Positions 43,589 to 47,422 of a stretch of 64,000 bases of DNA are shown piece by piece. Where the stretch lies: assembly GCA_034439575.1 (NCBI GenBank), contig JAWXAQ010000005.1, positions 64,001-128,000 of the forward strand, in the 5' to 3' direction. This DNA comes from Leptospira sp. GTDB taxonomy: Bacteria; Spirochaetota; Leptospiria; Leptospirales; Leptospiraceae. How positions within the stretch are numbered: the first letter of the stretch is position 1; each line of letters starts with the position of its first letter. The translations under genes and the position numbers were made by a program. The notes under the pieces are model-generated. The model worked only from the letters and a program-made list of their open reading frames with translations. It was not told where the DNA came from and ran no database searches.

Positions 43589-43724
43589 GGTTTGCCTTCG
43601 TATTTCTTTCCAGGTTTTGGTAATGGCTTTGTTTGGATAGGGAAATAAATTGAAATAATTTTAACTTGTGGACAAGTTATTATAAATAAAAGTCAATTCT
43701 ATTGACCATTGGCCAACCCAAAAT

Positions 43725-44159
43725 ATGACACAGGTTTTTGAAATTTTTAGTCTTTTGAATTCTATAATATTTGCACTGATATCTTTTTTACATGTCTATT
43801 GGGCGTTTGGTGGTAAGTCATTCTTTTTATCAGCCATACCAAAAGACAGATCAGGAAAACTAATCTTCTCACCAGGGCCAATCGCATGTTTGATTGTCGC
43901 CTCGGGATTGTTACTTTTTACTGCCTTAAATTTGTTAAATTTCTTCTCTTATTTTCCCAAGGAATATCAAAATTTCAACAAAGCGGCTTTCTTTTTGATC
44001 GCGCTAATTTTTGGGCTCAGGGCGATTGGTGACTTATCCTATGTTGGATTTTTTAAAAAAGTTCGGTCTGGCGTTTTTGCCAAATGGGATACCTTGCTCT
44101 ACTCACCACTTTGTTTATTTCTTTCCCTTTCCCATTTAATATTGGGTCAAATTATTTAA
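43725..44159 (+). CDS. DUF3995-like membrane protein
   Basis: LHVYWAFGG, RAIGD, FAKWDTLLYSPLCL. Confidence 0.75.
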   Translation: MTQVFEIFSLLNSIIFALISFLHVYWAFGGKSFFLSAIPKDRSGKLIFSPGPIACLIVASGLLLFTALNLLNFFSYFPKEYQNFNKAAFFLIALIFGLRAIGDLSYVGFFKKVRSGVFAKWDTLLYSPLCLFLSLSHLILGQII

Positions 44160-44206
44160 TAAAAAAATTGACGATTTTATCCCTTTGAATCGTCTATAAT
44201 ATAACT

Positions 44207-44260
44207 ATGAAATCTTCCGCATTCATTCAAATTTCTCTACTCCTCCTCGAGCTCAAATAG
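44207..44260 (+). CDS. Leucine-rich attenuator leader peptide MKSSAFIQISLLLLELK
   Basis: ATG 44207 to TAG 44260; tandem CTA CTC CTC CTC Leu codons; directly upstream of leuA. Confidence 0.8.
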   Translation: MKSSAFIQISLLLLELK

Positions 44261-44286
44261 TTCGAGGGAGATAGAGCTTTTTGTTT

Positions 44287-44322
44287 AAGCCCGGTCCTCT
44301 CAAAAAGGATGCGGGCTTTTTT
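44287..44322 (+). terminator. Attenuator terminator hairpin upstream of leuA
   Basis: AAGCCCGGTCCT-ctcaaaa-AGGATGCGGGCTT followed by a T run. Confidence 0.8.
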
Positions 44323-44391
44323 GCTTTTAGCCCCGAAAAGCAAAAAAATTCCTCCTTCCAAAGACCGGCAAAAAGGAAGTAAGGAAAAAAA

Positions 44392-45579
44392 ATGAACGAA
44401 CATAAAACAAACAAAAGAAAAGTTTGGATACAAGACGTCACATTGCGGGACGGAAACCAGGCTTTAAAAAAACCTTGGACAAAATCTGAGAAAGAATCCG
44501 TGTTTGACGCCTTAGTCGCGTTAAATGTAAATGGAATCGAAGTAGGATTTCCTTCCTCGAATCGAAACGAGTTTGAATCTGTACAGTCTTTGGCAAAAAA
44601 GGCACCCAAACACATAACAATTGCAGCTTTATCAAGGGCAAATGAAAAGGAAATACAAACCACTTGGGATGCCATTCAATTTGCAAAAACACCAAGGCTT
44701 CATATTGTTTATCCAGTCAGTGCATTTCAAATTCAAAACGTATTAAAAATTTCTAATGAACAAGTATTGGAAAAAATTTTTAATGCTATAAGTTTTGCAC
44801 GAAAGATTTCAGGTAAAGATACTAGCTTACAGTTTTCCGGAGAACATTTTGGAGATGCGATTGAAAATTTTGAATTCACCATAAAAGCATTTAACACTGC
44901 GATTGAAGCGGGGGCGACTGTGATCAATTTACCAAATACAGTGGAGCGTTATCGCCCCTTTTTGTTTGTCGATATGGTTCGTAGAGTCGTAGAAAAAATT
45001 CCAAGTCATATAACAGTATCCGTTCATACTCATAACGATTTAGGTATGGCAACGGCAACGACGGTCGAAAGTTTTTATGCTGGTGCGACACAATTAGAAG
45101 TCGCATTGAATGGATTAGGTGAAAGAGCGGGCAATACAAATCTTTATGAAACTGCCATTGCACTTCATCAATGCGGCGAAGACGTCGATCTTAACTTTAA
45201 AAAAGTATATCCTACTGCGAAATTTATTTCCGATTTAACAAAGATCCCTATTGGCGAAAAATCACCCATAGTTGGGGAAGATATATTTTCACACAGAAGT
45301 GGAATTCACCAAGACGGTGTGACAAAAACAATTGGACAAAAAAAAGGAGCATATCGTACTTTTTCACCTGACTTTGTGGGCCGAGAAGACGAAGAAAAAA
45401 TTTCTTTCACAAACCAATCAGGTGCCAAAGCGATCCAACATTTGTTATGGGAAGCTGGAAAAAAAATTGAGCCAGATAAAATCCAAATCCTATTTCACAA
45501 GGCTAAGGAAGTATCTAGCGCGGAAGAGAATCGAACCATTGAAATAGAAGAATTGTTATTTTGGGCAGAACAAGTTTGA
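44392..45579 (+). CDS. leuA: 2-isopropylmalate synthase, short form lacking the C-terminal regulatory domain
   Basis: DVTLRDGNQA, HTHNDLGMA, NGLGERAGN, HRSGIHQDG; only 395 aa. Confidence 0.9.
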   Translation: MNEHKTNKRKVWIQDVTLRDGNQALKKPWTKSEKESVFDALVALNVNGIEVGFPSSNRNEFESVQSLAKKAPKHITIAALSRANEKEIQTTWDAIQFAKTPRLHIVYPVSAFQIQNVLKISNEQVLEKIFNAISFARKISGKDTSLQFSGEHFGDAIENFEFTIKAFNTAIEAGATVINLPNTVERYRPFLFVDMVRRVVEKIPSHITVSVHTHNDLGMATATTVESFYAGATQLEVALNGLGERAGNTNLYETAIALHQCGEDVDLNFKKVYPTAKFISDLTKIPIGEKSPIVGEDIFSHRSGIHQDGVTKTIGQKKGAYRTFSPDFVGREDEEKISFTNQSGAKAIQHLLWEAGKKIEPDKIQILFHKAKEVSSAEENRTIEIEELLFWAEQV

Positions 45580-45609
45580 AAACCATTCAGCTTAACTTCT
45601 ATTTCAGTG

Positions 45610-45638
45610 TTGACAGTTTTATCATTGTTTGGTTAAAT
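45610..45638 (+). promoter_or_regulatory. Putative sigma70 promoter for the amidohydrolase gene
   Basis: TTGACA-N17-TTAAAT upstream of the GGAG RBS and ATG 45674. Confidence 0.4.
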
Positions 45639-45673
45639 CTTGTCCGAGTCTTAAGGCTCTTATTGGAGAAACA

Positions 45674-47422
45674 ATGACAACAACAACTTTGATTCAAGGT
45701 GCTAGAATATTTGATGGTTCAACAAAGCCATCTTTTGTTGGGGATATAAGAATCAAAGATGGCATCGTTCAGGAAATCGGAAATTCACTCAAAAAAAATG
45801 CGAAGGAAGAAGTCATAAATGCGAAAGGATTATGGCTCACTCCAGGATTTATTGATTTTCATACGCATTACGATGCAGAAATAGAAGTAGCACCCGACTT
45901 GTCTGAATCAGTGCGGCACGGGATTACGACAATTGCGCTGGGAAGTTGTAGTTTAAGTTTAGCGTTAGGTGACCCTGTTGATCTAGCGGATATGTTCAGT
46001 CGCGTCGAAGCCATTCCCAGAAAGAACGTATTGCAAATACTAGAAAAAAGGAAAAACTGGAATAGTGCTAAAGAATACAAAGCACACTTAAACTCCCTAC
46101 CCCTCGGTCCAAATGTAGTATCCTTTGCAGGGCATTCCGCAATTCGAGCTGAAGTCATGGGCCTGGAACGTTCTTTGACCAAAGGGGAAAATCCCACAAA
46201 GCAAGAGTTAAATGAGATGAAGGCCCACCTAGAAGAAGCACTTGATGCAGGATTTTTGGGTATGTCGATCAATACTCTTGTCTGGGATAAAATGGATGGT
46301 ACTAGATTTCGTTCTCGTCCCCTTCCATCAACTTTTGCTAGTTGGAGTGAATACCAATCCCTAAATCAAATTCTTCGCCGACGAGGGAAGGTTTTTCAAG
46401 GAGTCCCAAATGTTTCAACAAAGATCAATTTACTTATGTTTTTGTGGGAAGCCTTTGGAATCTTTCGAAAACCTTTAAAAACCACAATCATTTCTTTAAT
46501 GGATGTCAAATATGATCCAAGGCTTTATAAATTATTAGGAATTATTGGTCGGATCACAAATAAACTTTTTGGTTCTGATTTTCGTTATCAATCCTTACCA
46601 GAACCTTTTGATTTGTATGCAGATGGAATGGATGTCGTCGTCTTCGAAGAGTTTGGTGCAGGTGCCTATGCGAATCATATTGAAGATGAACATGAACGTA
46701 AATTACTTATGAAAGATCCAAAGTACAGGTCTTGGTTTAAAAAACAATGGACCAATTGGTTTTTACCGCGCGTATTTCATCGAGACTTCTCAGAAACAAA
46801 AATTGTCTCCGCACCTAACAAATTACTTATTGGTAAATCTATCGACCAAATCGCCAAAGAAAGAGGAGTACATTCTGTCACAGCCTTCTTAGATCTAGTC
46901 GCAGAATATGGAAACGACATTCGTTGGTATACGGTTATGGCAAATCATAGATTGAAACCATTGCAAGAAATAGTCTCTCATCCAGACATATTGATAGGAT
47001 TTTCAGATGCTGGCGCTCATTTGCGGGGGATGGCTCATTATAACTTCCCACTTCGTATGCTTAAGTTAGTTTATGATGCCGAAAAAAATAAAACGCCATT
47101 TATGACATTAGAATACGCAGTTCATCGTTTAACGGGAGAGATAGCGGATTGGTTTGGCATTGAAACAGGTTATATCAAAATCGGTAAACGTGCTGATCTT
47201 GTCCTCATAGATCCAAATGAACTTAATGAGGAGCTAGCAAAAGATTTCGAAGCACCTATGCCTTTTATGAATGGTTTCAAAAGATGGGTGAGAAGAAATG
47301 ATAAAACCATCAAAAGAGTATTCATCAATGGTGCAGAGGCGATTAAAAATGGAAAACCTGTGGCGGCACTTGGTAAAAAGAAAATCTATGGCAAATTTTT
47401 AGAATCAAAAATGGGAACTTAA
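45674..47422 (+). CDS. N-acyl-D-amino-acid deacylase-like amidohydrolase
   Basis: PGFIDFHTHYD, SDAGAH, GKRADLVLID. Confidence 0.85.
   Translation: MTTTTLIQGARIFDGSTKPSFVGDIRIKDGIVQEIGNSLKKNAKEEVINAKGLWLTPGFIDFHTHYDAEIEVAPDLSESVRHGITTIALGSCSLSLALGDPVDLADMFSRVEAIPRKNVLQILEKRKNWNSAKEYKAHLNSLPLGPNVVSFAGHSAIRAEVMGLERSLTKGENPTKQELNEMKAHLEEALDAGFLGMSINTLVWDKMDGTRFRSRPLPSTFASWSEYQSLNQILRRRGKVFQGVPNVSTKINLLMFLWEAFGIFRKPLKTTIISLMDVKYDPRLYKLLGIIGRITNKLFGSDFRYQSLPEPFDLYADGMDVVVFEEFGAGAYANHIEDEHERKLLMKDPKYRSWFKKQWTNWFLPRVFHRDFSETKIVSAPNKLLIGKSIDQIAKERGVHSVTAFLDLVAEYGNDIRWYTVMANHRLKPLQEIVSHPDILIGFSDAGAHLRGMAHYNFPLRMLKLVYDAEKNKTPFMTLEYAVHRLTGEIADWFGIETGYIKIGKRADLVLIDPNELNEELAKDFEAPMPFMNGFKRWVRRNDKTIKRVFINGAEAIKNGKPVAALGKKKIYGKFLESKMGT

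Follow-up and report, generated by a model that had tools for sequence, protein, structure and literature searches.

How can leucine control a 2-isopropylmalate synthase that lacks the domain to which leucine would bind? This question is raised by leuA2, a gene in a 64,000-nt stretch of DNA from Leptospira sp. (GenBank assembly GCA_034439575.1, contig JAWXAQ010000005.1, positions 64,001 to 128,000 of the forward strand; referred to here as the window, with positions counted from its first letter). A first-pass annotation, made from the letters of the window alone, had placed a leucine-sensing leader peptide attenuator in front of the gene. Having compared the locus with its counterparts across the family, we consider it very probable that the element is a classical ribosome-mediated transcription attenuator, which senses how much charged tRNA-Leu is available and regulates leuA2 accordingly; this assignment is supported by strong comparative evidence at the sequence level. 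The features on which it rests are the following.

44207 to 44260, + strand: leader open reading frame (ORF) of 17 codons and TAG, translation MKSSAFIQISLLLLELK; orthologues of 14 to 20 codons at 77 of 77 loci and also in genome G026
44237 to 44248, + strand: regulatory codons, four tandem Leu codons (CTA CTC CTC CTC) seen in the sequence; a fifth Leu codon, CTC, lies at 44252 to 44254
44235 to 44276, + strand: hairpin 1:2, formed by the Leu codons and the bases that follow the stop codon, from the minimum free energy (MFE) fold and the genus alignment
44264 to 44301, + strand: candidate antiterminator 2:3, 44264 to 44279 paired with 44287 to 44301, -12.7 to -13.3 kcal/mol
44287 to 44322, + strand: intrinsic terminator 3:4, loop at 44299 to 44305 and T-run at 44317 to 44322, -16.0 kcal/mol
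44392 to 45579, + strand: leuA2, short 2-isopropylmalate synthase of 395 amino acids without LeuA_dimer, from NF042434 and Pfam domains

The leuA2 gene starts 70 nt past the end of the terminator (44322). Its product scored 680.7 bits against the NCBIfam model NF042434 (IPMS_Lepto, 2-isopropylmalate synthase LeuA2; cut-off, 500) and is thus a member of that family. HMGL-like and IPMS_D2/HCS_D2 were the only domains found in it, and PF08502 (LeuA_dimer) was absent, in agreement with the first-pass description of a leuA without its feedback domain. LeuA1, which is encoded on contig C27 of the same genome, carries PF08502, and the region upstream of its gene contains no leader and no terminator. 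Since LeuA2 has no allosteric leucine-binding domain, the attenuator would be its only leucine-dependent control. The earlier suggestion that leucine would act here on transcription rather than on the enzyme is supported both by the comparative evidence and by this contrast between LeuA1 and LeuA2.

In the window, the leader could be read directly as ATG AAA TCT TCC GCA TTC ATT CAA ATT TCT CTA CTC CTC CTC GAG CTC AAA TAG, with the stop codon at 44258 to 44260. The two codons that make up its Leu run are minor ones in this genome, where CTC and CTA account for 9.3% and 10.3%, respectively, of the Leu codons in 1126 long ORFs, and the tRNA-Leu(GAG) and tRNA-Leu(UAG) are encoded by one gene each. 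While annotation pipelines overlook this ORF, the first-pass annotation had listed it with its 17 codons and four tandem Leu codons, and these, like all the coordinates that it gave for the features, proved correct on re-inspection.

The conservation of the leader was then followed through the family. LeuA2 scored above the NF042434 cut-off in 104 of 114 family genomes, and the DNA upstream of it was inspected in 78 of these. From 80 upstream loci, three (L054, L056, and L060) were dropped as second copies of genomes already included, which left 77 genomes from nine genera, and to these we add genome G026. Directly upstream of leuA2, all 77 loci and G026 have an ATG ORF of 14 to 20 codons with a Leu run, so that a short ORF with its own start and stop lies in the predicted 5' leader of this biosynthetic gene at 78 of 78 inspected loci. 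The tandem codons specify the pathway's own amino acid throughout, the longest Leu run being 3 at 5 loci, 4 at 12, 5 at 36, 6 at 23, and 7 at 1 (n = 77). The peptides of different genera, such as MAQNFFQANMLGLLLLLLWS, MFRNVTLLTLTIELLLLLS, MIQKFFTTMLLLLLTLM, MKIYYQIELLLLLLKLA, MQNQRENQFRITLLLLLSE, MTKKQNNLLLLLKLT, and MIKSHSSLLLLLLG, have in common only this run and its place near the C terminus, and the N terminus varies. The Leu codons themselves vary synonymously (CTC 266, CTT 137, TTA 58, CTA 48, TTG 20, and CTG 12; n = 541), and the stop codon may be TAA, TAG, or TGA. The ATG, the frame, and the stop are nevertheless intact at 78 of 78 loci, with length differences in the genus alignment that are multiples of three. 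Had the leader ORF and its Leu run been confined to the window, the attenuator proposal would have been hard to maintain; both recur at every inspected locus of the family. Since the DNA upstream of the leader promoter is unrelated between clades, the element evidently travels with leuA2.

The RNA of this region is predicted to be highly structured. The MFE fold of 44203 to 44330 has an energy of -39.7 kcal/mol (z = -4.35), which none of 200 shuffled sequences reached. It contains hairpin 1:2, in which the Leu codons (44235-44243/44246-44253) pair with the segment 44259-44270/44272-44276, and the G+C-rich stem of terminator 3:4 (44287-44298/44306-44318), which runs into six T at 44317 to 44322. 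Both hairpins had been drawn in the first-pass annotation, and both hold in the fold. A simple terminator scan of the window passed over 44287 to 44322, whose loop-plus-bulge geometry lies outside the rules of that scan. Across the family, an intrinsic terminator separates the leader ORF from the structural gene at 77 of 78 loci; it consists of a hairpin that begins 20 to 39 nt past the stop codon and is followed by at least five T.

Covariation of the two helices could be observed directly in an alignment of 30 sequences of the genus (A1). Hairpin 1:2 comprises 17 pairs with 88.5% of cells paired, the terminator comprises 12 pairs with 97.5% of cells paired, and each contains four pairs that changed on both sides. 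Taken together, the two helices have 92.2% of cells paired, versus 35 to 57% with slid partners, and their eight both-side-changed pairs were not reached by any of 500 shuffles. The alignment of leuA upstream regions that the first-pass annotation had called for thus finds the Leu run conserved and stems 1:2 and 3:4 covarying. A covariance model built from this alignment matched the genome of the window exactly once; of the 40 genomes of the genus, 39 gave a single strong match next to leuA2, and G026 was missed. In several of these genomes the model also matched weakly a second time, about 38 kb away from leuA2. These matches were rejected on the one site that was inspected, in genome G013 (L085, 130 to 240), which is an ordinary gene end, with two hairpins including a terminator, a convergent gene after it, and no leader ORF.

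Attenuation would further require that region 2 can be captured by the 5' arm of the terminator. When the RNA was folded from the stop codon up to the terminator loop, one long-range helix of exactly this kind resulted in representatives of all nine genera. Among 16 representatives, 13 had at most 5 of 200 dinucleotide shuffles folding as well, the exceptions being the window, L020, and L077. The sequences of the helix vary by genus, for example GGGGGAGCcGG:CCuGCUCCUCC, AGAGGAcGG:CCGcUCCUCU, and GGUUGGcGUGaGC:GCcCACuCCAACC. Each region 2 also pairs better with its own region 3 (mean, -14.7 kcal/mol) than with that of another genus (mean of 4288 between-genus swaps, -11.1 kcal/mol). As any region 2 has to pair with Leu codons of the CUC type as well, this control errs on the conservative side.

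The position of the ribosome was modeled by masking its footprint in folds of all 77 loci, for the free transcript as well as for a nascent transcript that ends before the 3' arm of the terminator. In the free transcript, the terminator forms at 75 of 77 loci and the Leu run is paired at 73. For a ribosome halted at the final Leu codon of the run, at least 60% of the terminator 5' arm in the nascent RNA is paired at 46 of 77 loci (mean, -11.1 kcal/mol), versus 8 of 77 (mean, -3.2 kcal/mol) when the ribosome stands at the stop codon. Compared with the ribosome at the stop, stalling increases the pairing of the arm at 63 loci and leaves it unchanged at 9; in the window, 10 of its 12 bases are paired in the stalled state versus 5 of 12 with the ribosome at the stop. 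Region 2 begins 0 to 8 nt after the stop codon, and the Leu run ends 1 to 5 codons before it. The stop codon is therefore placed such that a terminating ribosome, rather than a stalled one, would mask region 2, and the masked folds agree with this placement.

From these elements we infer the following course of events. Transcription would start at the leader AUG or a few bases before it, and a ribosome would translate the 17-codon leader. With ample Leu-tRNA, the ribosome would reach the TAG and cover the G-rich region 2 that lies just after it, the terminator 3:4 would form, and transcription would end at the U-tract after about 115 nt. If no ribosome is loaded, the Leu codons would capture region 2 (1:2), and formation of the terminator would again follow. 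When Leu-tRNA is scarce, the ribosome would stall on CUA CUC CUC CUC and thereby cover region 1 and leave region 2 free to pair with the emerging 5' arm of the terminator (2:3). No terminator would then form, and the polymerase would read into leuA2, in a kinetic competition whose outcome would depend on leucine.

The predicted start of the transcript rests on two sites upstream of the leader.

44168 to 44173, + strand: -35-like TTGACG, preceded by an A-run at 44161 to 44167 and located 39 nt upstream of the leader ATG
44195 to 44200, + strand: TATAAT, candidate -10, located 6 nt before the leader ATG and not conserved in relatives

All 77 loci have a hexamer of the TTGAC/TTGTA type after an A-run, 34 to 43 nt before the leader ATG. 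This distance is exactly 35 nt in four genera, the value to be expected for a transcript that begins with the A of the AUG. A Shine-Dalgarno (SD)-like 4-mer precedes the leader ATG at only 6 of 77 loci and is lacking in the window. Because of this spacing and the usual absence of an SD, we predict that the leader transcript is leaderless or has a 5' untranslated region (5'UTR) no longer than about 6 nt. Many mRNAs of L. interrogans are leaderless, and about 440 transcripts with a 5'UTR below 10 nt are given for this species in the accessible text of PMC5243855. The first-pass annotation had arrived at a leaderless transcript from the TATAAT and the missing SD; both are there and a near-leaderless start is predicted, but the TATAAT is unconserved (its place is taken by TAAAAG, TATAGT, TGATAG, and similar sequences in relatives) and is probably not the conserved promoter element. 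At the 17-nt spacing from the -35, the sequence common to relatives is (C)GTCT or GAGTCT, and the window has CGTCTA there. This conserved motif could be an unusual -10, a site for an alternative sigma factor, or a regulator site. A sequence resembling it, CCGAGTCTTAAGG, was also seen at 45644 to 45656, before the next gene.

A number of observations weigh against attenuation as described here, and we set them out together. First, the antiterminator of the window does not stand out from chance. Folded alone, 44259 to 44305 gave -12.7 kcal/mol (z = -1.15), and 31 of 200 shuffles were as good (8 of 100 in a second shuffle test). Thus, the annotation was right that 44264 to 44279 pairs with 44287 to 44301, but in the window this pairing is no better than in shuffled sequence, though it is supported in the 13 representatives mentioned above. 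In alignment A1, the proposed antiterminator pairs are 87.8% paired with no both-side changes, and shuffles did equally well. Second, full-length MFE folds with a stalled ribosome still favored the terminator at 74 of 77 loci, and so the switch must be kinetic. Equilibrium folds of the E. coli trp leader likewise favor the terminator, and the choice there is kinetic. Third, the preference for CTC (49% of leader Leu codons versus 9.3% in the 1126 long ORFs) is no independent evidence of rare-codon sensing, because pairing with the GAGGGAG of region 2 demands CUC-rich codons too. Fourth, the -10 is ambiguous: TATAAT is uncertain in this role, given its lack of conservation and its distance of 21 nt to the conserved TTGACG, and the CGTCTA/GAGTCT at 17-nt spacing makes a poor -10. 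Fifth, G026 (locus L087, 315 to 430), a genome of the same genus, has a leader ORF (MVIILTKSFLLLLSLQKA) with four Leu and a hairpin, and no T-run follows; it is the sole exception among the 78 loci. Sixth, of three RNA runs, one contained the whole stretch of the orthologous locus L081, another a small share of it, and the third none. Placed on the locus, the first run gave one contig of 2967 nt that spans it from end to end and the other two gave nothing, and this coverage is uninformative on starts, 3' ends, and levels. Finally, leucine addition did not change the growth of L. interrogans with or without paraquat, according to those parts of PMC12345160 that are accessible, which do not address uptake.

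The alternative that fares best is that translation of the leader acts mainly by a route other than intrinsic termination, that is, through Rho-dependent termination and polarity or through a helix that covers the SD of leuA2. We regard this as unlikely. G026, with its leader and hairpin but no T-run, would fit such a route, and so would an upstream ORF (uORF) before an ilvB paralog of this genome, whose hairpin is followed by an A-run instead of a T-run. The helix in question is the following.

44349 to 44386, + strand: UUCCU/CUUCC paired with GGAAG/AAGGA over the leuA2 Shine-Dalgarno, from the fold

At least five of the six bases of the leuA2 SD hexamer are paired to an upstream anti-SD at 42 of 77 loci, with a mean of 4.42 paired bases versus 2.92 when the upstream part was shuffled (77 loci), and the anti-SD sequences differ by genus (e.g., TCTCTC:GAGAGA and CTCCTTAAA:TTTAAGGAG). 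The pairing may represent a second, translational layer of control. As the principal mechanism, it is opposed by the strong hairpin at once followed by at least five T at 77 of 78 loci and by the position of the anti-SD downstream of the terminator, where it is out of reach for the leader ribosome.

It is very unlikely that the short ORF is instead an independent gene for a small hydrophobic peptide with its own terminator, leuA2 being transcribed from a separate promoter downstream. The peptide is indeed Leu-rich and hydrophobic, like small membrane proteins, and the ORF and terminator would make a complete transcription unit. Between genera, however, the Leu run is the only part of the peptide that is kept, and the unit invariably lies directly before leuA2, whatever gene is found upstream of it. 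Region 2 is moreover complementary to both the Leu codons and the terminator arm. A scan for sigma-70-like promoters found no + strand site in 44323 to 44391, though the same scan also missed the leader's own promoter with its 21-nt spacing.

Nor do we expect, except with a very small probability, that the conserved RNA acts through its structure alone, as a regulator to which a protein, tRNA, or metabolite binds, and that the ORF is incidental. T-boxes or RNA-binding proteins are known to control leu and ilv genes in other bacteria, and conservation of both hairpins with covariation is what such a regulator would show. An incidental ORF, however, would not be expected to keep its ATG, frame, and stop at 78 of 78 loci, to differ in length by threes, or to exchange its Leu codons for others that remain Leu. 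The structure moreover contains no conserved unpaired pocket, and an Rfam scan of 43600 to 46000 with E up to 10 found no leader or riboswitch but only chance-level matches to eukaryotic and viral families. That the hairpins are a mere terminator of the DUF3995 gene, which lies just upstream on the same strand (43725 to 44159), can practically be dismissed, since a -35-like element and the leader ORF intervene and since, in other clades and genera, the element remains at leuA2 although the sequence upstream is unrelated.

Ribosome-mediated attenuation, which we thus retain as the explanation for the leuA2 leader, may bear on a further observation. In L. interrogans treated with paraquat, leuA2 was the most upregulated gene and protein and the only induced gene of the leucine pathway, and its product was described as lacking the feedback domain, as reported in the accessible part of PMC12345160. 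The same accessible text contains no words beginning with attenuat, leader, terminator, UTR, riboswitch, or tRNA. Selective induction of leuA2 fits the attenuator, because the latter precedes leuA2 but not leuA1. It is conceivable, although we would sooner bet against it than for it, that the attenuator is the missing control behind this induction and serves family-wide as a stress sensor and not just a nutritional one. Oxidative damage might lower the charged tRNA-Leu for CUC and CUA, either via the Fe-S dehydratases of the pathway or via tRNA-Leu itself; the resulting stalling of ribosomes on the Leu run of the leaderless transcript would turn on the feedback-insensitive LeuA2 as an emergency booster answering only to tRNA charging. 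The simple route through Fe-S damage is not favored, because leucine did not help growth and aconitase activity was unchanged, again going by the accessible part of PMC12345160. If true, the attenuator could offer a testable cause for the so far unexplained superoxide induction of leuA2 in a pathogen without superoxide dismutase.

The surroundings of the element were also inspected. A second hairpin lies just 3' of the terminator, where the T-run pairs with a downstream A-run (UUUUUUGCUUUU AGCCCCG AAAAGCAAAAAA); it could form only after read-through.

44317 to 44347, + strand: second hairpin, T-run paired with downstream A-run, from the fold; by eye, hairpins of other sequence occupy the same place in L002 to L008 and genus g25

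Downstream of leuA2, an amidohydrolase gene starts with TTG 45629 in the ORF list; the ATG at 45674, which is preceded by GGAGA, suggests a later start, and a promoter-like site, TTGACA-17-TTAAAT at 45610 to 45638, suggests that the gene has its own promoter. If both hold, leuA2 would be monocistronic. The antisense ORFs at 44253 to 44675 and 44227 to 44433 matched no Pfam family at E up to 0.1.

We also scanned both strands of the 4.1-Mb genome for ATG ORFs of 8 to 35 codons with a run of at least four identical residues or of at least six L/I/V, followed by a hairpin and T-run. This yielded seven matches, three of which were Leu runs, and the terminator of the leuA2 leader was the strongest of all seven. 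A match on contig C8 (MVINFLSLVVVLVR...) was rejected, as no long ORF comes after it and it resembles part of a gene on the opposite strand.

How does this element compare with known systems? Judged by its sequence, the leuA2 leader would share the mode of action of the classical leu, trp, and ilv leaders without being homologous to them. The enterobacterial leuL consists of a short leader ORF with four tandem minor Leu codons and of 1:2, 2:3, and 3:4 structures before the first gene of the leucine pathway. The leuA2 leader of the window resembles it in its four tandem minor Leu codons, its 1:2 hairpin, its candidate 2:3 helix, and its 3:4 terminator. It differs in having no homology to leuL in sequence or structure, with no Rfam leader family matching at the threshold given above, and in the 14- to 20-codon ORF, which usually lacks an SD and is predicted to be leaderless or nearly so. 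The leuA2 leader would moreover control a single feedback-insensitive paralog and not a whole operon, LeuA1 being unattenuated.

Within Leptospira, the closest relative in kind is the "ilvB motif," which, as far as the accessible text of PMC10272879 goes, has seven representatives, all from Leptospira, and was reread there as a Val/Thr-rich uORF consistent with attenuation. The kind of device is the same: a conserved uORF rich in branched-chain codons that precedes a gene for branched-chain biosynthesis, about 70 nt upstream of it in the ilvB motif, and is proposed to act as an attenuator (PMC10272879, accessible text). The ilvB motif as described there has Val runs and Thr before ilvB, whereas the leuA2 leader is a separate Leu-run element with a canonical terminator and is therefore not a member of that class. 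The genome studied here contains a 40-codon ORF (MFTSSLQNTVFTNVSLVMLSYALTLLVVVTLPITLSFLSL) with VVV before a second acetolactate synthase (ilvB paralog) gene (locus L083, contig C11, about 3366 to 3244, minus strand), with a hairpin (CUCCCCAC...GUGGGGAG) and then an A-run downstream of the ORF; no Rfam family matched this region at the gathering threshold, and the ORF is probably the published ilvB motif. The first-pass annotation had known of no such attenuator in spirochetes. For leuA2 this agrees with our literature searches, in which no paper on a leader or attenuator in front of the Leptospira gene came up, but a uORF attenuator had already been proposed for Leptospira ilvB, as the accessible part of PMC10272879 indicates. 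The leuA2 leader is thus the second leader peptide attenuator proposed for Leptospira, and a much better supported one, with nine genera and covariation at the level of helices.

Outside the spirochetes, the polycysteine uORFs of mycobacteria are not known to depend on an intrinsic terminator. These leaderless uORF attenuators also place an ORF at the very 5' end of a leaderless mRNA, with a codon run for the amino acid of the downstream genes (bioRxiv 10.1101/834739, accessible text), but they concern another amino acid in another phylum, and the start of the leuA2 leader is only predicted. If its leaderless start is confirmed, the leuA2 leader would add a spirochete example to this group. 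With the leader peptides of actinobacterial leuA and ilvB it has in common that attenuation outside the Proteobacteria was predicted by comparative genomics (PMC1262725 and PMC11857589, accessible portions); those leaders are unrelated in sequence, and their genes encode full-length, feedback-sensitive enzymes. Compared with all of these, the leuA2 leader is notable for its predicted leaderless start and for its proposed control of a feedback-insensitive paralog alone. A paralog blind to feedback thus need not be unregulated: in LeuA2, control appears to have shifted to transcription, where it would be tied to the charging of tRNA.

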